Below are positions 183-11,991 of a stretch of 12,511 nucleotides of DNA, piece by piece. The translations under genes were made by a program, and so were the position numbers. The first letter of the stretch is position 1, and each line of letters opens with the position of its first letter. Where the stretch lies: IMG/VR virus record IMGVR_UViG_2693429508_000013. One strand, given 5' to 3'. Under the pieces are notes generated by a model. The model ran no database searches and was not told the DNA's origin. It saw only the letters and a program-made list of their open reading frames with translations. This stretch comes from a virus. Lineage: Duplodnaviria > Heunggongvirae > Uroviricota > Caudoviricetes.

Positions 183-1265
183 TCATTTTCTCTGGCTGAT
201 CTTTACCGGATAACCATCCCGAAGATCAATTAAGTGCTCCGGTTCAGAAGCAAACCATGCATAAGATCCCCACGCCAATTCTGGTATTGCCTTTTTAAAA
301 GGCAGAGCACTTCTGTCCATAAATGCCGTAAGGAATGCAAGATTTTTCTCGCTGAACCCAGCGTCAATAGCCAAATGAGTGAGAGTAACTTTTCGTTCCC
401 TGTTTATAGGCCCATCTGTCGCAACTACTTCAGTGAAAACTACAAGCATGTCCGAACCCGTTCGGTCCTCTCCCAAATCAATCAAAATAATATCTGGAAG
501 TGCTTTTGAGGCATCAATATTCAGCCCCAATGCTTTTGCCAATACATCATCCTGAGCAACAACTTTATTCCCGGATTCAGACAACCAGAGCACAGTTGGA
601 TTCTTAAGAAAATTAGGAGCAAAAACTTCGATGACGGCCTTAGCTATTGTACTTGACGGGCCCGGAGCTAAAGTTCTCTTCTCTCCATTTGGGAAAGTGA
701 CGACTACGGCATCAGCAGCAATCACTGCCCCTGATTTCAATAAACGCAACCTAGCAAGAGCGGCTTTGTTCAAATGATTTTCTTGCCAGGAACTTATTGC
801 ACTCAGCAGCGAATCTCCTTCAAGCCCGGCATCAAAGAGTGCTGCAAAAGAGCGATTCAAACTGTAACGAGGACGAGAGGATGTGGTGGGTATACCTTTA
901 CGCTCAACAATTGCATTGCAAGGTATTAGGCCATTTTTTATAGTTTCATCACGTATTGGCTCACGCGTATTTTCCGCATACCATGCATCAGCAGGCCTTA
1001 TCTTTTGTTTAGAGAAAGTCATCTTTACCCAGCTTTCTCTGGACGCATCATCAGTAAGAGCAGCCTGCGAATCTCCCATACTTACAACCTGGCTGGGCCT
1101 TATCCATCGCCCCAGCCCCTCAACCGCACCAGCATAAAACATGACAAAAATTGTTTTTGCAGCTATTTCCCGAATTAAATATCCACGATTCTCAGTCCCT
1201 TCAGGGAAAATTAATTGTAATCTTTCCCGGATAACATTCAATGGGGGAACAACAGGCAGATTCAT
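183..1265 (-). CDS. Putative Type II restriction endonuclease, cognate to the upstream methyltransferase
   Basis: 360-aa ORF. Its ATG (1265-1263) overlaps the TGA stop of the methyltransferase gene (ATGA overlap on the minus strand), so M then R sit in one coupled operon. No methyltransferase motifs. The nuclease call rests on gene context and AT-rich cargo-like composition, not on a recognised catalytic motif. Confidence 0.55.
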   Translation of the reverse strand: MNLPVVPPLNVIRERLQLIFPEGTENRGYLIREIAAKTIFVMFYAGAVEGLGRWIRPSQVVSMGDSQAALTDDASRESWVKMTFSKQKIRPADAWYAENTREPIRDETIKNGLIPCNAIVERKGIPTTSSRPRYSLNRSFAALFDAGLEGDSLLSAISSWQENHLNKAALARLRLLKSGAVIAADAVVVTFPNGEKRTLAPGPSSTIAKAVIEVFAPNFLKNPTVLWLSESGNKVVAQDDVLAKALGLNIDASKALPDIILIDLGEDRTGSDMLVVFTEVVATDGPINRERKVTLTHLAIDAGFSEKNLAFLTAFMDRSALPFKKAIPELAWGSYAWFASEPEHLIDLRDGYPVKISQRK

Positions 1266-3094
1266 GCAATCATCACTCCATAGAAACCAGCGATAGTTCT
1301 CTCAATAATCCGTCTGTGGACGCCAGCATCAATTAACGATTGAATCTCCATCACCTGCTCCAGAGAAGGCAACGGGATTGAATTCAATTCATAGGCCGAA
1401 ACAGCAACACTTCCGCTTATACACCTGAACGCCCGATCGACAACATGCGAATTAAGTAGCATATCAATAACATCAGGGCGAACCGCAGAGAACAATCCGT
1501 TTGAATATACAATATTAATATGGTTTTCAACTACTACGCCACCAGTTTCATCTATAAATCCCTGAGGTAAAATTGCCGCTAAAATCCTTCTGTCCTGTTC
1601 CTTCGATGTTGTCCGCTGAACAAGCACACATTCAGATTTTGTCACAAGGAAACCCTGTTGTGGGGTTATATCGATATAGGGAACATGATTTTTTCTGTCT
1701 GCACTAAAACGAAAACCAGCTGAAGTTATTGATTCCGCCCAGACTAATGGGTAGCTATTTTTTCCTTTCGTCGTACGCAACTGCGACTTAAATCGATTCC
1801 AGACTAACTGACCTGTAGAGACTGAGTATCCCAGATCAGCTAAACGCGTAGACATCTGTTTTAATACATTAAGAAAACAGGCATCATCTTTAACGCGTGG
1901 CAAAAGCCACGTTGCTCCACCTTTTTCTATATCAACATTACCTATTTTCTCAATTTTTGCTTTGTTCAACCCCTTAGGGACAAGTGAGGATACCTGGGCC
2001 CGAACTTTATGTTCTCCCGCCTTGAATGCTGTCAACATTGTTTCCTGGAGAACATCGTCAAAGACCCCATCCCTGTCAGTGACGAAATCAAGGGCATACG
2101 GAGTAGTTTTTTCGGTCAAAAGGGTTCGCAGCGCGGTGAAATACTGCCCACCAAGAAAAGAAGTTGGCGTAAGAAATGCAATAACTCCTGTTTTCTCTTT
2201 AACCATGCGAACAGCTAAGTCGGTGAACAATCCATATAGATTTGCATGACCAAATAACGAACGAGAATATTTTTCTCTCGTTTTAATATCGAGAGTGACA
2301 CGTCCGTAAGGCGGATTCCCTACCACAAGATCATAACCAGAAAATTTATCTTGCTGAAGCGCATCAGCAACAATAATTGTATCTTCAGGCAATCTACGTT
2401 TTACCTTTACACATAGTGGCATTAGTACAGATTCGAGCAATACCAAACTCATCCAAGCCGCAAATGGATCGATTTCTATCCCCTTTAAACGACGACTGAT
2501 TCTCCTCAACATCCATTCAGGGGAAGACCCCTTGTCTTTTTTTAACATTCGAATGGCTACTGGTGCCAAAAATGCACCGCCACCACACGCAGGATCAATA
2601 ACCGATGCATGAGAAAAATCAACACCAGACTTTTCAGCCAGGTCCAAGAGACGCGCTACCAAAGGTGGGGGGGTATAGTAAGCCCCCAATTCCGAACGGT
2701 AAGCGGATGGCAGCATTACCGTATAAATTGACCCAATCAGATATCCAGCGTCCTCCGCCGGAAATTGAGCAATAAGCTCACCTGTTCGTTCAGCGAGCTC
2801 GCGTGCATCACATGGAATGTCTTCTATGTAAACAGTGTGCGGTACTGCCCTCATTTTAATGCTGCTTTTTTGCTTTTTTGCAAGGGTATCCCAATATGCA
2901 GCTACGATGCTGAAGCAGTATGAGCGGGCATGCATCAACCTTGACTGCCCGGTTTTGTAATTGCCCGCATAACCTTTGGCCATGGCTTTACAAGTTTGAT
3001 ATCTTTCCAGATTAGAAAACTCATTATCTGTAAAAAAATCAAAATGTTGCACATTCATAATGTAAAATCCTAATGTATCAAACATGCGGGCCAT
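1262..3094 (-). CDS. N6-adenine DNA methyltransferase, gamma class (Eco57I-like amino-MTase fold)
   Basis: 610-aa ORF with motif X (YYTPPPLV), motif I SAM-binding (VIDPACGGGAFL) and motif IV catalytic (DLVVGNPPYG) in the gamma-class order X-I-IV. The long C-terminal half is consistent with a target-recognition domain. ATG at 3094-3092. Confidence 0.88.
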   Translation of the reverse strand: MARMFDTLGFYIMNVQHFDFFTDNEFSNLERYQTCKAMAKGYAGNYKTGQSRLMHARSYCFSIVAAYWDTLAKKQKSSIKMRAVPHTVYIEDIPCDARELAERTGELIAQFPAEDAGYLIGSIYTVMLPSAYRSELGAYYTPPPLVARLLDLAEKSGVDFSHASVIDPACGGGAFLAPVAIRMLKKDKGSSPEWMLRRISRRLKGIEIDPFAAWMSLVLLESVLMPLCVKVKRRLPEDTIIVADALQQDKFSGYDLVVGNPPYGRVTLDIKTREKYSRSLFGHANLYGLFTDLAVRMVKEKTGVIAFLTPTSFLGGQYFTALRTLLTEKTTPYALDFVTDRDGVFDDVLQETMLTAFKAGEHKVRAQVSSLVPKGLNKAKIEKIGNVDIEKGGATWLLPRVKDDACFLNVLKQMSTRLADLGYSVSTGQLVWNRFKSQLRTTKGKNSYPLVWAESITSAGFRFSADRKNHVPYIDITPQQGFLVTKSECVLVQRTTSKEQDRRILAAILPQGFIDETGGVVVENHINIVYSNGLFSAVRPDVIDMLLNSHVVDRAFRCISGSVAVSAYELNSIPLPSLEQVMEIQSLIDAGVHRRIIERTIAGFYGVMIA

Positions 3095-6796: not shown

Positions 6797-7222
6797 TCAA
6801 TGTACTGCCACAGCATTTCCTGCCGGGCCACCACGGTTCATCTGATTGAAACCGGCGATTGCCACTGCGACAAAATCATCAGCGTCTCTCACCAGTCGTT
6901 CATGCGTCTCCACCAGTTCCCGAAAATAAGCTGAACTGTGGCTGCGCATTCGAGCCACCAGCGGAGGTGGCATTGCCCTTTCGATCGCAGGTAACAACGC
7001 CTGAATTTTTTCAACAGCGTCAGGGGTGTCTTTATCCAGCCAACGGAAAATCTTTTGGGTGTTGAGATAAAGCGTGTTGTGCTTGCTGTCGTTATGCAGA
7101 ACCGGAAACGTCATTCCCAGTTCGAAATAAACCCTGGTTATTTCAGCTGCCGGAACTTTTTCACCGTCCGGATGCGCCCAGGCTTTCATCGCCATGCGGA
7201 TGTGTTCATGCTTGATTTTCAT
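6797..7222 (-). CDS. ydaT: YdaT-like protein (CII-like regulator family of Rac-type prophages)
   Basis: 141 aa, MKIKHEHIRMAMKAWAHPDGEKVPAAEI...; recognised from memory as YdaT-like. Its ATG overlaps the TGA of the upstream Cro-like gene (ATGA at 7219-7222). Confidence 0.75.
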   Translation of the reverse strand: MKIKHEHIRMAMKAWAHPDGEKVPAAEITRVYFELGMTFPVLHNDSKHNTLYLNTQKIFRWLDKDTPDAVEKIQALLPAIERAMPPPLVARMRSHSSAYFRELVETHERLVRDADDFVAVAIAGFNQMNRGGPAGNAVAVH

Positions 7223-7482
7223 GAATCAACCCCCGCCGATGGTTGTGTGTTAGCCTGAAACTCAGCAGGCAAGCCGTCAGTTGGGTTGGGGTAGGTTTTA
7301 CTGTCAATCTCATGTGGGGTCACCACCCATCCCGTTGCTTCACACCAACGTAATATTTTTTCTCCTGTAAGTTTTGCACGCCCCGTTATAACGTGGCTGA
7401 CCATCCCTTGGGATGCGCCAACAATCTCAGCAAATGAACTCTGGGTTATATGAAAATGATGCAAATATTCTCCAAGATTCAT
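7219..7482 (-). CDS. ydaS: YdaS-like Cro-type HTH protein
   Basis: ATG at 7482-7480 (MNLGEYLHHFHITQSSFAEIVGASQGMVSHVITGRAKLTGEKILRW...); the track ORF starts at a TTG at 7509. 87 aa, single HTH. Divergent from the repressor gene across an operator-bearing intergenic region. Confidence 0.75.
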   Translation of the reverse strand: MNLGEYLHHFHITQSSFAEIVGASQGMVSHVITGRAKLTGEKILRWCEATGWVVTPHEIDSKTYPNPTDGLPAEFQANTQPSAGVDS

Positions 7483-7517
7483 AATCCGCCCTATGTGATG
7501 TGTTACCAATGCATAAT

Positions 7518-7559: not shown

Positions 7560-7593
7560 CAAAGTGATTAGCAATCTTATTAGAATTGGATGT

Positions 7594-8094
7594 ATGAAAA
7601 GAAAATCATTGTCAGACACCGACCTCAACGCCGCCAGAAGACTGAAAGAAATCTGGATGGCAAAGAAATCTCAGTTGGGATTGACTCAGGAACGTGCGGC
7701 GGAAATTATGGGGTTTTCAACACAAGGGGCGGTAAGTCACTACCTAAATGGTCAAACCCCACTAAACCTTGAGGCTGTTCTAAAGTTTGCTGGCTTACTG
7801 AAAGTTCCCCCTGAGTCAATCAGGCCAGACATGGTAGATTTGCTGCAAATTGCAAGGATGTATTGTCGAGAACCACAGCAAGATAACATAGTCGCATTAC
7901 CAGCAGACACAGAACAAACAGAGGATGAACTACCGTTTGCCGTAGAGCCGATGGAACGAGATTTAATCCATACGTTCAGAGCTTTTCCGAAAGAAGATCA
8001 AGAACACATGCTTCAGGAGATGAAAGATAAAAAAGAATCAATGGATCGTACGGTTGCGCGGTGGTTAGCTGCACAAAAAGGCCGTCGCGCCTAA
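7594..8094 (+). CDS. Phage repressor-like HTH regulator without a peptidase S24 domain (PaaR-like)
   Basis: ATG at 7594 (MKRKSLSDTDLNAARRLKEIWMAKKSQLGLTQERAAEIMGFSTQGAVSHYLNG...); the track ORF starts at a GTG at 7564. cI/434-type N-terminal HTH, acidic C-terminus, no Ala-Gly/Ser-Lys LexA-like features. First gene of a three-gene unit ending in parE. Confidence 0.75.
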   Translation: MKRKSLSDTDLNAARRLKEIWMAKKSQLGLTQERAAEIMGFSTQGAVSHYLNGQTPLNLEAVLKFAGLLKVPPESIRPDMVDLLQIARMYCREPQQDNIVALPADTEQTEDELPFAVEPMERDLIHTFRAFPKEDQEHMLQEMKDKKESMDRTVARWLAAQKGRRA

Positions 8095-8113: not shown

Positions 8114-8308
8114 ATGAGTACAGTCCTTTCCCCAATGGTTTCAGAATTTGAGACAGTTGAGCAAGAAAATAGTTACAACGAATGGCTGCGGGCCAAAGTA
8201 GCAGCAAGCCTCGCGGATCCCCGCCCGGCGATTCCGCATGATGAGGTAATGGCGGAAATGGAACAAATTATTGCCCAAATTGCTGCTGCAACTCACAGAG
8301 GTGAATAA
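8114..8308 (+). CDS. paaA: PaaA2-like antitoxin, partner of ParE
   Basis: 64 aa, MSTVLSPMVSEFETVEQENSYNEWLRAKVAASLADPRPAIPHDEV...; SD GAGGAG 9 nt upstream. Stop overlaps the parE start (TAATG). Confidence 0.7.
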   Translation: MSTVLSPMVSEFETVEQENSYNEWLRAKVAASLADPRPAIPHDEVMAEMEQIIAQIAAATHRGE

Positions 8309-8598
8309 TGTTACCCGTTTTATGGCTACCATCTGCTCGTGATGATTTGCGCCAGATCGTAGCCTACATAGCTAAAGAAAATCCCGCGGCAGCACGCAGA
8401 ATGAAAATTCGAATTGAAACATCCGTTTTGCCGCTCACAGAGCATCCTTACCTGTATCCTCCAAGCGAGCGAGTTCTTGGTCTTCGTGAAATTGTAACTC
8501 ATCCTAACTACATCATCCTTTACCGAGTAACAGCATCAAGCATAGAAGTAGTAAATATTGTGCATTCTCGAAGACAGTATCCAGGCAAAAACAGTTAA
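8308..8598 (+). CDS. parE: ParE/RelE-family toxin
   Basis: 96 aa, MLPVLWLPSARDDLRQIVAYIAKENPAAARRMKIRIETSV... HPNYIILYRV...; typical ParE length and conserved segments. Translationally coupled to the antitoxin. Confidence 0.85.
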   Translation: MLPVLWLPSARDDLRQIVAYIAKENPAAARRMKIRIETSVLPLTEHPYLYPPSERVLGLREIVTHPNYIILYRVTASSIEVVNIVHSRRQYPGKNS

Positions 8599-8614
8599 TT
8601 ATTCCCGCCGACAG

Positions 8615-8637
8615 AACCACCTTAGGGTGGTTTTTTC
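8615..8637 (+). terminator. Rho-independent terminator after parE
   Basis: Stem AACCACC / GGTGGTT with loop TTAG (8615-8632), followed by a T-run (to 8636). Confidence 0.6.
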
Positions 8638-8652
8638 TTGCCCCAACAAAAA

Positions 8653-8694
8653 CAATAGCGATGCTATTTACATCAAAAAATAATGATGCTATTG
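8653..8694. promoter_or_regulatory. OL-like operator pair upstream of the rightward dicB-type operon
   Basis: Two 17-bp sites separated by 8 bp: CAATAG-CGATG-CTATTT (8653-8669) and AAATAA-TGATG-CTATTG (8678-8694). Same half-site consensus and spacing as the 7518-7559 pair. Embedded in a larger inverted symmetry AACAATAGC ... GCTATTGTT (8651-8696). Confidence 0.55.
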
Positions 8695-8875
8695 TTTCAG
8701 GCGTCAACCCACCCCGCCCCACAGAATGCAGGGCAATACTTCGAGTTACCAGACAGTGGTCAGGGGTTAAGTAGCCAGCCCGAGGCGTAAGAACATGACG
8801 GCAGGGTTCAATCTTTAACTATGCAGCAGGTTTTTTGTTCCGCCACCCCGGCGTTAAGGGGAAATGAGGTCAGCA

Positions 8876-9027
8876 TGGATACTATCGATCTTGGCAACAA
8901 CGAATCTCTGGTGTGCGGCGTGTTCCCTAACCAGGATGGAACGTTTACCGCCATGACGTATACCAAAAGCAAAACGTTTAAAACCGAATCTGGCGCGCGT
9001 TGCTGGTTAGCCAGAAACACTGACTGA
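8876..9027 (+). CDS. Small hypothetical protein (YdfA-like by position and size)
   Basis: ATG at 8876 with SD GAGG 6 nt upstream. 50 aa, MDTIDLGNNESLVCGVFPNQDGTFTAMTYTKSKTFK.... First gene after the OL-like operators. A longer start at 8821 lacks an SD. Confidence 0.5.
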
Positions 9028-9038
9028 TGAGGCTGACG

Positions 9039-9404
9039 ATGGAATTTAAAGATTTACCGTCTGATGTACAGAAAACAGCAGCTCATACATTGCATTCTGT
9101 GCTGCGAGAAATCGGGAAAGATATTGCAAGCGAGCCAGCAAAAGATCTGGCCCGGAAAATCAAGACCGCTTTCGTTGAGCTTTATAATGTTGGCACTGAC
9201 TCTGAAACTGTCGAGACCAAGACCGTAAGTTCACCAATATTCTCACTTGAGCCAAGCGTATTATCAGGTGAAATATGCACCGAGATTTCCAGCGAACTGC
9301 TTCCGGTAATACGAGAAGCAATTCGCCGTCGCGGTTTGGATGGAAGTTATGATCATGACGTTCTGCAAGTTCTCAGGACAATGGTGACTTCACTGGGGAT
9401 TTGA
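9039..9404 (+). CDS. Hypothetical phage protein
   Basis: ATG at 9039 (MEFKDLPSDVQKTAAHTLHSVLREIGKD...) with SD GAGG upstream. 121 aa. Confidence 0.55.
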   Translation: MEFKDLPSDVQKTAAHTLHSVLREIGKDIASEPAKDLARKIKTAFVELYNVGTDSETVETKTVSSPIFSLEPSVLSGEICTEISSELLPVIREAIRRRGLDGSYDHDVLQVLRTMVTSLGI

Positions 9405-9573
9405 TCCCTGCGTCCTCTAAGCTTTTGATATAGCGGTCCTCCAAGAAGCGGTAAATTTTGTCGAAATCATCTTTTCCCTCTGGTTTATTCAGAGGATTAC
9501 AGGACCCGTAAGTAGCGGCATACATTTCAACCGTTTTATCAAAAATATAAGAGACAAATTCTTCTTTAGTCAT
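9373..9573 (-). CDS. Small hypothetical protein
   Basis: ATG at 9573-9571 with a good SD (AAGGAAA) upstream on the minus strand. 66 aa, MTKEEFVSYIFDKTVEMYAATYGSCNPLNKPEGKDDFDKIYRFLEDRYIK.... Convergent with the 9039..9404 gene and overlapping it by 32 bp. Confidence 0.45.
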   Translation of the reverse strand: MTKEEFVSYIFDKTVEMYAATYGSCNPLNKPEGKDDFDKIYRFLEDRYIKSLEDAGIKSPVKSPLS

Positions 9574-9758
9574 ATAGATTTCCTTCTTGGTTATTCGGGA
9601 TAAGAAGGATACCACCTCGCCTGACGTGGTTAAAAGCAGGCACACAACGCGAAATGACGCGGCGGTAAGTATGGCGGAGTTATTCCTTCCCCGTTGAGGA
9701 CACCGGGTTGTCAGGTTGACCATACGCTTAAGTGACAACCACGCCACAACACTCCATG

Positions 9759-9814
9759 TTGATTGGTACCTTTGGCGGCATCAGTTTCATTGCTGGCTGA
9801 TGTCCGCCCTTTTT
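9759..9814 (+). ncRNA. dicF: DicF-like sRNA with terminator hairpin
   Basis: TTGATTGGTACCTTTGGCGGCATCAGTTTCATTGCTGGCTGATGTCCGCCCTTTTT. The core TTTGGCGG.ATCAGTTT and the GC-stem plus T-run 3' end match my recollection of E. coli DicF; the 5' dozen bases differ. Hairpin GGCGGCATCAG (9774-9784) / CTGATGTCCGCC (9797-9808), then TTTTT (9810-9814). Sits upstream of dicB as in Qin. Confidence 0.5.
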
Positions 9815-10301
9815 AAAGTGAATTTTGTGATGCGGTGAATGCGGCTCAGCGCACGCGGCACAGTTAAAAAGCGATTAGTTCCCCCGTATCGGGTGGTTAT
9901 GGGTTTCCCTGTATCCGGCGTTAATTGTTAACTGGTTAACGTCACCTGGAGGCACCAGGCACCGCATCAACAAAGTTCACTTCGGTGATGAAAGGAAAGA
10001 GAAAATGTTGAATGTAGCTATTGAAAACCAGAACGGGTGGAATTATAGTGCACCTGCACCTTATAAAACGGGTGCCGGGCGTGGAAACCCGAACGTTACT
10101 CGAGCGCATAGCCGCGCTGAAGCGGTTTTTTTATGCGTAATGCACAGCTCCATTCAAATTATGGTGGGATGTGCAGGGCAGTCGCAAGACTGGCCGGGTT
10201 CTCGAGTGACCGGTATTTCCACCCCTGTACGTCTCACCACCCTTATGGTCGTGGAAAACCTCGGTGGTGAGTTAATTAACTTATCACTCGAGGATGCCAT
10301 C

Positions 10302-10859
10302 ATGGCTACTATCCCTGCCCTTTCTCACCCTGACGTAACCATCGAAAATGGTCGCGCTGTCACTACGTCTATTGCGATCGCAGAGTTCTTTGGCAAGCGT
10401 CACGACAATGTGTTACGTGCCATCGCAAATACTGAATGCTCACCTGAATTTAACGCCCTCAATTTTGAGGACGTCACCTACACTGACGCCAAAGGCGAAA
10501 AACGCCCGATGTACCAAATCACCAAAAACGGCTTCGTTTTCCTGGTGATGGGATTCACTGGCAAAAAAGCCGCTGCATTTAAAGAAGCCTACATTGCTGA
10601 GTTCGATCGCATGGAGGCCGAACTGCGCCAGAATAACACCCCACCCACTGACAAAATAATTCCAGGCGATGGCCGCACCCTGGTTGTTCACTTCGACGAA
10701 CGCGGCAACATCAGATTCACCGAAACCGTTCCTGATGGCGCACGGGTCTGTACCATGGAGACTTTCCGGTTTTATCTGGAAGAACAGGGATGGACTCTTG
10801 TTAACCGGGGCGCAATTAAAAATATGACTGTAGAGCAATTACTCAAAATTCATTGTTGA
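10302..10859 (+). CDS. rha: Rha-family phage regulatory protein
   Basis: ATG at 10302 with SD AGGA 7 nt upstream. 185 aa, MATIPALSHPDVTIENGRAVTTSIAIAEFFGKRHDNVLRAIAN ... YQITKNGFVFLVMGFTGKKAAAFKEAYIAEFDRME, i.e. a Rha N-terminal domain signature. An in-frame upstream ATG at 10005 would add 99 non-Rha-like residues. Confidence 0.8.
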   Translation: MATIPALSHPDVTIENGRAVTTSIAIAEFFGKRHDNVLRAIANTECSPEFNALNFEDVTYTDAKGEKRPMYQITKNGFVFLVMGFTGKKAAAFKEAYIAEFDRMEAELRQNNTPPTDKIIPGDGRTLVVHFDERGNIRFTETVPDGARVCTMETFRFYLEEQGWTLVNRGAIKNMTVEQLLKIHC

Positions 10860-10869
10860 GGACGCGATA

Positions 10870-11058
10870 ATGGAAACGTTATTACCAAACGTTAATACGA
10901 CTGAAGGTTGTTTTGAAATTGGTGTCACTATCAGTAACCCTGTATTTACTGAAGATGCCATTAACAAGAGAAAACACGAACGGGAGTCATTAAATAAAAT
11001 ATGCATTGTTTCAATGCTGGCTCGTTTGCGTCTGATGCAAAAAGGATGCTGGCGATGA
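10870..11058 (+). CDS. dicB: DicB-like cell-division inhibitor (copy 1)
   Basis: 62 aa, METLLPNVNTTEGCFEIGVTISNPVFTEDAINKRKHERESLNKICIVSMLARLRLMQKGCWR; SD GAGGA 7 nt upstream. Recognised from memory as DicB (62 aa in K-12 Qin). Confidence 0.8.
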   Translation: METLLPNVNTTEGCFEIGVTISNPVFTEDAINKRKHERESLNKICIVSMLARLRLMQKGCWR

Positions 11059-11246
11059 ATACAGCATTTGCACTCGTTCTGACCGTTATTCTTAATACGG
11101 GCGAACCAGCTGAACTGGTTACCGGAGTATACAACTCCATGAAAGAATGCGTGGCTGCTGCAGCTGAACAGAAAATTCCCGGTAACTGTTATCCGGTTGA
11201 TAAAATCATTCACCAGGATAATAAAGAAGTCCCGGCAGGTCTTTAA
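11055..11246 (+). CDS. ydfD: YdfD-like small membrane/lysis protein (copy 1)
   Basis: ATG at 11055 overlaps the dicB stop (ATGA), SD AAAGGA 8 nt upstream. 63 aa, MNTAFALVLTVILNTGEPAELVTGVY..., hydrophobic N-terminus. Same size and position as YdfD of Qin. Confidence 0.7.
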   Translation: MNTAFALVLTVILNTGEPAELVTGVYNSMKECVAAAAEQKIPGNCYPVDKIIHQDNKEVPAGL

Positions 11247-11334: not shown

Positions 11335-11604
11335 TACATTGCTGAGTTCGACCGCATGGAGGCCGAACTGCGCCAGAATAACACCCCACCTGCTGACAAG
11401 ATGATTCCGGGTGATGGTCGCACTCTGGTTGTTCACTTCGACAAATTCGGCAATGTCGAATTCACCGAAACCGTTCCTGATGGCGCACTGGTCTGTACCC
11501 TGGAGACTTTCCGGTTTTATCTGGAAAAACAGGGATGGACTCTTGTTAACCGGGGCGCAATTAAAAATATGACTGTGGAACAATTACTCAAAATTCATTG
11601 TTGA
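11335..11604 (+). pseudogene. Truncated rha copy (3' portion only) created by the tandem duplication
   Basis: Homology to rha begins mid-gene at the duplication junction. The rha frame opens just after a TAA at 11314-11316; the first ATG (11356) has no SD. Encodes only the C-terminal 82 residues (MEAELRQNNTPPADKMIPGDGRTLVVHFD...). Confidence 0.65.
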
Positions 11605-11614
11605 GGACGCAATA

Positions 11615-11803
11615 ATGGAGACGTTATTACCAAACGTTAATACGTCTGAAGGTTGTTTTGAAATTGGTGTCACTATCAGTAACCCTGTATTTACTGAAGA
11701 TGCCATTAACAAGAGAAAACACGAACGGGAGCTATTAAATAAAATATGCATTGTTTCAATGCTGGCTCGTTTACGTCTGATGCCAAAAGGATGTGCACAA
11801 TGA
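11615..11803 (+). CDS. dicB: DicB-like cell-division inhibitor (copy 2)
   Basis: 62 aa, METLLPNVNTSEGCFEIGVTISNPVFTEDAINKRKHERELLNKICIVSMLARLRLMPKGCAQ. Differs from copy 1 at 5 of 62 residues, mostly at the C-terminus. Confidence 0.8.
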   Translation: METLLPNVNTSEGCFEIGVTISNPVFTEDAINKRKHERELLNKICIVSMLARLRLMPKGCAQ

Positions 11804-11991
11804 ATACAGTATTTGCACTCGTTCTGACGGTTTTTCTTGTTTCCGGTGAACCGGTTGACATGGTTACTGGCGTATACAGCTCAATGAAAGAATGTATGAC
11901 TGCCGCAGCGAAACAGAAAATTCCCGGTGACTGTTATCCGGTCGATAAAGTTATTCACCATGATAATAACGAAATCCCGGCAGGTCTTTAA
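11800..11991 (+). CDS. ydfD: YdfD-like small membrane/lysis protein (copy 2)
   Basis: ATG at 11800 overlaps the dicB copy-2 stop (ATGA). 63 aa, MNTVFALVLTVFLVSGEPVDMVTGVY.... Differs from copy 1 at 16 of 63 residues. Confidence 0.7.
   Translation: MNTVFALVLTVFLVSGEPVDMVTGVYSSMKECMTAAAKQKIPGDCYPVDKVIHHDNNEIPAGL

Follow-up and report, generated by a model that had tools for sequence, protein, structure and literature searches.

The window analysed here is a stretch of 12,511 nucleotides from a Caudoviricetes record of IMG/VR (IMGVR_UViG_2693429508_000013), and at 9759-9814 on its plus strand it carries a short element in the place where dicF would be expected. DicF is a textbook prophage sRNA: it stops cells from dividing, reprograms sugar metabolism and enhances the virulence of EHEC. 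A sequence-only reading of the window had described the element as DicF-like, with a 5' dozen nucleotides unlike those of E. coli K-12 that could redirect it to other mRNAs. The question raised by the locus is whether the element belongs to the DicF family at all and, if it does, whether it can still pair with the mRNAs that DicF is known to regulate.

Operon context

Genes were assigned with Pfam and structured RNAs with Rfam. A minus-strand cro-like HTH gene (7219-7509) is followed by a cI/DicA-like HTH gene (7564-8094), a plus-strand DUF1391/YdfA-like gene (8821-9027; Pfam DUF1391, 3.3e-28), a plus-strand gene for a hypothetical protein of 125 aa (9027-9404), the element itself, isrK (10056-10132; 61 bits), a C4 antisense RNA (10157-10244; 77 bits), a Rha antirepressor gene (10302-10859), dicB on the plus strand (10870-11058; Pfam DicB, 6.8e-37) and a DUF1482/YdfD-like gene (11001-11246). 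With two insertions, this is the K-12 Qin order dicC / dicA-ydfA-ydfB-ydfC-dicF-dicB-ydfD, and the upstream gene order is the same in K-12, SE11, P393-F10 and pDCE7-1. The element thus has the genomic position of DicF, in a lambdoid-prophage dicB operon between ydfA/B/C-type genes and dicB. The earlier placement upstream of dicB, as in Qin, was right as to slot and operon order but not as to distance: dicB lies 1,060 nt downstream of the element, against ~175 nt in K-12, with an isrK-C4-Rha insertion of ~900 nt in between. That insertion is missing from the interval between slot and dicB in SE11, P393-F10 and pDCE7-1.

Several other features of the region were recorded. The isrK-C4-Rha module (window 9967-10869), which lies between the STnc100-like spacer described below and dicB, also occurs after alleles of the classes called B or C below, at the loci L034, L106 and L252 and in E. 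coli VL7S7 (L004). The immunity region also contains a PaaA2-type antitoxin/ParE toxin pair (8114-8598; Pfam), which separates the cI/DicA-like repressor gene from the ydfA-like gene. As a result of a tandem duplication (10590-10889 / 11335-11634, extending to 11991; period 745 nt, 92% identity), dicB and the DUF1482 gene each have a second copy (11615-11803 and 11746-11991), preceded by a truncated C-terminus of Rha (11356-11604). On the minus strand at 183-3094 there are two ORFs of 360 and 610 aa, which in the closest E. coli relatives are a prophage-borne BsuBI/PstI-family restriction endonuclease and an HsdM-type methyltransferase.

A structured spacer resembling STnc100 follows the terminator of the element (9821..9974, plus strand; RF02076, 31.6 bits against a gathering score of 47). 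The corresponding K-12 spacer (L125:2933-3142) scored 34.4 bits, and the spacer was present after every allele tested, with sub-threshold scores of 27-41 bits in K-12 and most alleles examined. The only promoter-like site found upstream on the plus strand was TTTACA-17-TG-TATTGT (8667..8695; a consensus match at 9/12 positions), before the ydfA-like gene, and from its sequence it could be the counterpart of dicBp. The element itself has no promoter-like site next to it. This fits K-12, where the operon transcript is the precursor of DicF. The interval 8560-9780 contained no terminator-like site. In K-12, RNase III cleavage gives a 190-nt species and RNase E a 53-nt species, and there is no internal promoter (bioRxiv 10.1101/2023.04.14.536235).

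Structure and family membership

The element consists of a 15-nt tail, a GC-rich hairpin of 13 bp and a run of five T. The predicted single-stranded tail UUGAUUGGUACCUUU (9759..9773, plus strand; TTGATTGGTACCTTT in the window) was unpaired in both the MFE and the centroid structures and aligned with positions 1-14 of the Rfam DicF model with one gap; taking 9759 as its 5' end is a guess, not the result of mapping. The hairpin, referred to as class B, was found by folding and by a terminator scan as GGCGGCATCAGTT/TCATTGCT/GGCTGATG(T)CCGCC (9774..9808, plus strand). Its base is formed by five invariant G-C/C-G pairs (GGCGG/CCGCC), above which lie a one-base bulge (U9803), eight more pairs (CAUCAGUU/GGCUGAUG) and the 8-nt loop UCAUUGCU. 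It is followed by C (9809) and TTTTT (9810-9814) on the plus strand, an intrinsic-terminator U-tail (9809..9814) that is the same as in K-12 DicF and, by analogy with it, is likely the Hfq-binding 3' end. The terminator scan matched 9777-9804 plus CGCCCTTTTT, and a GC-rich stem-loop with a T-run directly after it on the transcribed strand predicts a plain intrinsic (Rho-independent) terminator. A 62-nt stretch had an MFE of -21 kcal/mol (z = -3.2), with 1 of 200 shuffles folding as well. A 40-codon ORF overlapping the element (9716-9838) was ruled out as coding by frame-breaking indels among alleles, with 10 gap columns against K-12.

A short 5' tail, a GC-rich terminator hairpin and a U-run, together ~53 nt, make up the architecture of DicF, and the dot-bracket layout of the element equals that of K-12. 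Both RNAs have a tail of 15 nt, both hairpins are closed by GGCGG/CCGCC, and in both cases CUUUUU and the same STnc100-like spacer follow; both also occupy the orthologous slot, from ydfA-type genes to dicB, in a dicA/dicC-controlled operon. They differ in that the window stem is continuous and ~5 kcal/mol stronger (-21 against -15.9 kcal/mol by folding).

Family membership was assessed with the Rfam DicF model (RF00039), which has a gathering score of 48 bits and gives K-12 DicF 76.7 bits. The default scan of the window at gathering thresholds returned isrK and C4 only, and no DicF. A permissive scan of 9600-10000 (401 nt) matched the model end to end at 9761-9809 with 38.8 bits (E = 4e-7), and the silence of the default scan is explained by this score being under the gathering score. 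Every class-B allele tested scored 34.1-45.4 bits. The element therefore falls short of the Rfam threshold for DicF RNA, yet its resemblance to DicF is real and non-random. The sequence-only reading had let its identification depend in part on an Infernal match, and on that the outcome is borderline, since 38.8 bits is no match at the curated threshold while the E-value is 4e-7; homology, supported by a full-length match, stood, and a score at family level did not.

Localised replacement relative to K-12 Qin

Alignment with the K-12 Qin prophage, which had been proposed as a check, placed the divergence within the RNA itself, the body being 57.1% identical and the flanks 95-97%. The upstream leader (9648..9743, plus strand), homologous to the part of the K-12 190-nt precursor between the RNase III and RNase E cuts, is 96.9% identical (93/96 positions). 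The RNA body at 9744-9803 (60 nt) has 57.1% identity and 10 gap columns; from the stem base onward, 9804-9868 (65 nt) is 95.4% identical and 9904-9965 is 95.2% identical. Between TTTGGCGG and CCGCCC about 9 of the 43 positions differ. Because the architecture is the same, the flanks are 95-97% identical and the sub-threshold Infernal match is full-length, the element is, as judged from its sequence, a DicF homologue in the DicF slot.

K-12 DicF (L125:2883-2935) reads TTTCTGGTGACGTTTGGCGGTATCAGTTTTACTCCGTGACTGCTCTGCCGCCC, so the K-12 sequence that the earlier reading had given (TTTCTGGTGACG...) was correct, and the changed 5' tail that it described was borne out (UUGAUUGGUACC against UUUCUGGUGACG). 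The changes are not confined to that dozen nucleotides, however. The loop is UUUUACUCCGUGA in K-12 and UUUCAUUGCUGG in the window, and the 3' arm CUGCUCUG has become CUGAUGU, a change that turns the bulged K-12 stem into a nearly continuous 13-bp helix. Since the divergence fills the body, every DicF segment known to touch a target differs, and not the 5' dozen alone.

The K-12 tail also has 8 bases more than the window tail. These extra bases lie at the K-12 RNase E site, which accordingly has no aligned counterpart in the window/K-12 alignment, and this makes the mature 5' end, and even the release of a short RNA, uncertain. In the predicted MFE structure of the K-12 190-nt precursor (L125:2746-2940), the upstream sequence GCGGCGGUAAGUAUGGCGGGGU pairs with the DicF loop and 3' arm, and such internal pairing would mask the ftsZ-binding region before processing; in the modelled window precursor (9628-9814) the class-B hairpin folds by itself.

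Pairing with known DicF targets

The 5' end of DicF pairs with xylR, its loop with ftsZ and pykA, and its 3' arm with manX (PMC5069750, PMC5861419), and the DicF23 mutation affects pairing with both ftsZ and pykA (PMC5069750; PMC5861419). Pairing was evaluated as a co-fold ddG (dimer minus monomers), with a shuffled tail and loop as controls. RNAduplex without intramolecular structure had given meaningless whole-length duplexes for every pair and was replaced by this measure. With K-12 DicF the published sites were recovered for xylR (AAACGUCACCG with nt 5-15; -15.4 kcal/mol) and manX (GGGCUGCAGAGCAGUUGC with nt 36-53; -17.6 kcal/mol), and likewise for ftsZ, at -11 to -14 (-13.9) kcal/mol, and pykA, at -9.9 kcal/mol.

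The window allele gave -7.2 (ftsZ), -6.4 (xylR), -4.1 (pykA) and -6.6 kcal/mol (manX), energies that were equalled or bettered by 15%-27% of the shuffled controls. At the ftsZ ribosome-binding site, where K-12 DicF gave -13.9 kcal/mol, the -7.2 kcal/mol of the window allele was reached by 27% of shuffles, and xylR, pykA and manX lay within the range of the shuffled controls. The anti-Shine-Dalgarno loop motif ACUCC is absent from the window allele, and its tail differs from the K-12 tail UUUCUGGUGACGUUU that pairs with xylR (PMC5069750). Unlike K-12 DicF, the window allele thus has no above-chance pairing to the four mRNAs; it has lost complementarity to ftsZ, pykA, xylR and manX. All other class-B alleles likewise showed no strong target pairing by co-fold, and all class-A variants (K-12 being of class A) kept strong values.

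It could still be asked whether the element is an equivalent DicF that represses ftsZ through another pairing geometry. It has the same slot and scaffold as DicF and is co-encoded with dicB, and AUUGGU in its tail can pair with ACCAAU in codons 3-5 of ftsZ. That contact is the only one with ftsZ and is weak. The 6-bp match is destroyed in the sister allele UUGAUUUGUACC, the ACUCC motif is gone, and predicted ftsZ pairing, at -5.6 to -7.2 kcal/mol, falls short of the -11 to -14 kcal/mol of K-12 and is matched by 27% of shuffles. We regard continued repression of ftsZ as unlikely.

With complementarity to the validated targets gone, a change of target is a reasonable idea, as the sequence-only reading had suggested, although its emphasis on the 5' end was too narrow. 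Within the window, the only sites complementary to the tail or loop were the element's own locus and two wrong-strand matches with 3 mismatches. Across 20 class-B loci there was no cis-linked target at a constant relative position, and the energies were typical of chance.

Allelic variation in the dicF slot

In pattern scans of IMG/VR the slot was found to hold at least four hairpin classes, at least 12 tails in combination with the class-B hairpin, several loops, and chimeras. Class-B tails include UUGAUUGGUACC, UUGAUUUGUACC, GUUGAUUACCU, UGUGUGAGACC, CUGUGUGUAGUC and GGCAGUGGUACC. The class C hairpin (GGCGGGUAUCC...GAUACCCGCC) did not match the DicF model at all, and the class D hairpin (GGCGGACAUCGG...CUGAUGUCCGCC) scored 29 bits on it; both classes share the anchors, the downstream spacer and the set of 5' tails with the window allele and differ from it in inner stems and loops. 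The tail CCAUGUUGAUUACCUUUU was found with both B and C hairpins, one chimera (L262) joins the canonical tail to a non-canonical hairpin, and another (L287) has a class-A stem and a C-like loop. In an anchor-only scan, roughly two-thirds of the first 80 matches listed were class A and one-third other classes, as a rough estimate. E. coli VL7S7 (L004:12640-12760), the closest overall relative of the window, has a class C hairpin in the same slot, and the IMG/VR loci L200-L260 also carry class C or other hairpins there.

Folding was compared over 34 distinct hairpin alleles (261 loci), every one of which forms a closed hairpin (11-17 bp; -12.8 to -23.1 kcal/mol). In the structural register of these alleles the five basal pairs never vary, and at pairs 6-12 there are 4-6 different standard pair types. 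RNAalifold found no formal covariation in a sequence-based alignment of 13 alleles, where the shared pairs are invariant; the variation of pair types in the structural register leans towards a conserved structure. Variation across 135 distinct loci is lowest in the columns of the hairpin base, the T-run and the ~60 nt after it. Tails and loops vary freely in sequence and length (loops of 8-19 nt). Class A is almost clonal. Class-B loci have diverse upstream sequences, and their 5' tail is about as variable as the remainder of these.

These patterns bear on the possibility that the element is only an intrinsic terminator or attenuator of the early operon, limiting the antirepressor module and the toxic dicB, with no RNA function in trans, canonical DicF being one allele of this terminator that happened to gain targets. 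The best-conserved parts are those that termination would need, namely the stem base, the T-run and the following 60 nt, with tails and loops free to vary, and the class-B stem, stronger and nearly perfect at -21 kcal/mol, is what an efficient terminator would be expected to have. Complementarity to the tested targets does not exceed chance, and no target was found in the window or at a syntenic cis site. DicF is moreover toxic when expressed (PMC5069750), and alleles that terminate without pairing to ftsZ could be favoured. Three observations weigh on the other side: an RNA ending here would share the Hfq-type 3' module of DicF, which is Hfq-dependent (PMC5069750); the leader that contains the processing region is 97% conserved with K-12; and the replacement falls sharply within the RNA body, as discrete tail and hairpin alleles that re-assort, rather than as scattered decay. 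We hold a terminator without trans function to be a doubtful but serious explanation.

A broader picture, which we put forward tentatively, is that the dicF position is a modular, recombining cassette in which a fixed leader, the GGCGG/CCGCC base, the U-tail and the STnc100-like trailer frame tails, stems and loops that are shuffled. Canonical DicF would then be just the commonest allele, and the others might be functional Hfq-dependent sRNAs aimed at different mRNAs of the host or of rival phages.

Distribution and annotation

The exact 86-nt sequence was found in E. coli P393-F10 and pDCE7-1, with near-identical copies in C5 and others. The copies of P393-F10, pDCE7-1, C5 and SE11 are identical or near-identical and lie directly upstream of dicB, and those of P393-F10, pDCE7-1 and C5 are in prophages integrated at ompW or rspB. 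By blastn, at least 80% of the 86-nt query was present in 228 of 5,426 complete E. coli genomes; megablast with a 72-nt query having no 28-mer in common with canonical DicF found the class-B hairpin in 108 of the 5,426. The frequency of the class-B hairpin is thus about 2-4% of complete E. coli genomes. Most of the hosts come from cattle, pigs (ETEC) or poultry or are STEC, and SE11 and UMNF18 are also among them; none of the 60 class-B matches listed bears an O157:H7 label. The median number of DicF-related places per E. coli genome was 2. No full-length class-B copy was found in deposited phage genomes.

A pattern scan of genome contigs, with one genome per species, gave class-A copies in E. 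coli (two) and a single hybrid allele in Salmonella. The latter, from Salmonella enterica strain s1 (L194:3640-3684), joins a class-B-like 5' arm (GGCGGC) to the canonical ACUCC loop and 3' arm; it has a different 5' tail and unrelated downstream sequence, and in contrast to the window allele it keeps the ACUCC loop, with its predicted ftsZ pairing retained (-12.9 kcal/mol). Ten other contig matches were rejected as not DicF: eight, from Verrucomicrobia-type and WOR-3 MAGs, had a common context that looked protein-coding, and those from a Marinobacter genome and a Pseudomonadota MAG were unrelated sequences.

The distribution also bears on whether the element might be a decaying, non-functional dicF remnant in a degenerating prophage. 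A sub-threshold Rfam score would suit a remnant, as would a locus rearranged by the inserted module and the tandem dicB duplication. Its hairpin, however, is more stable than the canonical one and not degraded, stem changes preserve pairing across classes, and many unrelated strains, in various prophage contexts, carry exactly this allele together with an intact dicB. Decay is accordingly very unlikely.

At the class-B copies examined no ncRNA feature was listed, whereas K-12, the class-A genome used for comparison, has a dicF feature; the difference suggests, but does not prove, that the allele is overlooked by annotation. That class B is invisible to Rfam-thresholded pipelines is settled decisively by the bit scores. 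A survey of 27 genomes in 2012 (Skippington & Ragan; PMC3318445) scored dicF as lost in SE11. SE11 carries a class-B allele (L294:2511-2561, NC_011415.1 about 1781410-1781460) that scores 34.1 bits and lies inside an intact ydfA-ydfB-...-dicB-DUF1482 operon. In EHEC O157:H7, strain EDL933 has four Rfam-annotated DicF copies (PMC5331693, PMC7873438). These resemble class B in being further copies of this locus in prophages, of which one genome often has several, and differ in that they pass the Rfam threshold and are annotated as DicF.

The Pas sRNAs (bioRxiv 10.64898/2026.05.13.724894) are likewise prophage-borne, multi-copy and diverse in sequence, with STnc100 elements nearby, and that family diversifies by sequence variation and repeated acquisition; the Pas paper does not mention DicF. 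Identity of the element with a Pas sRNA was ruled out, Pas genes being unrelated in sequence and lying in the late region near Q, holin and structural genes.

What is new is a divergent allele that has the architecture and position of DicF and lacks both an Rfam score above threshold and complementarity to the DicF targets. No earlier account of the class-B allele was found in the searchable literature, the coverage of which is incomplete, and a prior description is possible.

Interpretation

The explanation that we consider the probable one, with some reserve, is that the element is a terminator-embedded sRNA of the DicF family, produced like DicF but with its specificity changed or lost, which also acts as an attenuator before the antirepressor module and dicB. 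Building on the homology, synteny, structure, localised replacement and loss of complementarity described above, we infer transcription, processing, Hfq binding and any regulatory activity along the following lines. Window 9759-9814 would be a class-B dicF allele at the orthologous position in the dicA/dicC-controlled early operon of a lambdoid E. coli prophage. The operon transcript would start upstream of the ydfA-like gene, be cut in the conserved leader and end at the hairpin and the U5 intrinsic terminator, releasing an RNA of ~50-56 nt whose terminator hairpin and U-tail would bind Hfq as in K-12 DicF. The hairpin may in addition hold back transcription into the isrK/C4/Rha module and into dicB, which is toxic. 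In the class-B allele all three target-binding segments of DicF, the 5' tail, the ACUCC loop and the CUGCUCUGCC 3' arm, have been replaced, from which it is predicted not to repress ftsZ, pykA, xylR or manX. It would act on other mRNAs through its 5' tail or have no trans targets, and the variability of class-B tails fits weak constraint and retargeting equally well.

Comparative work so far has treated DicF as either present, in near-identical form, or absent, and the class-B allele corrects such views: the slot can stay filled by a structurally intact relative that has none of the known DicF pairing segments and is missed by threshold-based annotation. As far as sequence goes, the alleles offer a naturally occurring set of seed and loop exchanges in which the scaffold stays the same. 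If the class-B allele is expressed, an uncharacterised Hfq-type regulator would be present in the prophages of ~2-4% of sequenced E. coli, chiefly ETEC, STEC and livestock-associated strains, and the locus would be a natural experiment in swapping sRNA targets on a retained scaffold. If it does not act in trans, the alleles would separate the terminator role of DicF from its regulatory role. Either way, tables of DicF presence and absence and Rfam-based annotation under-report the DicF family.
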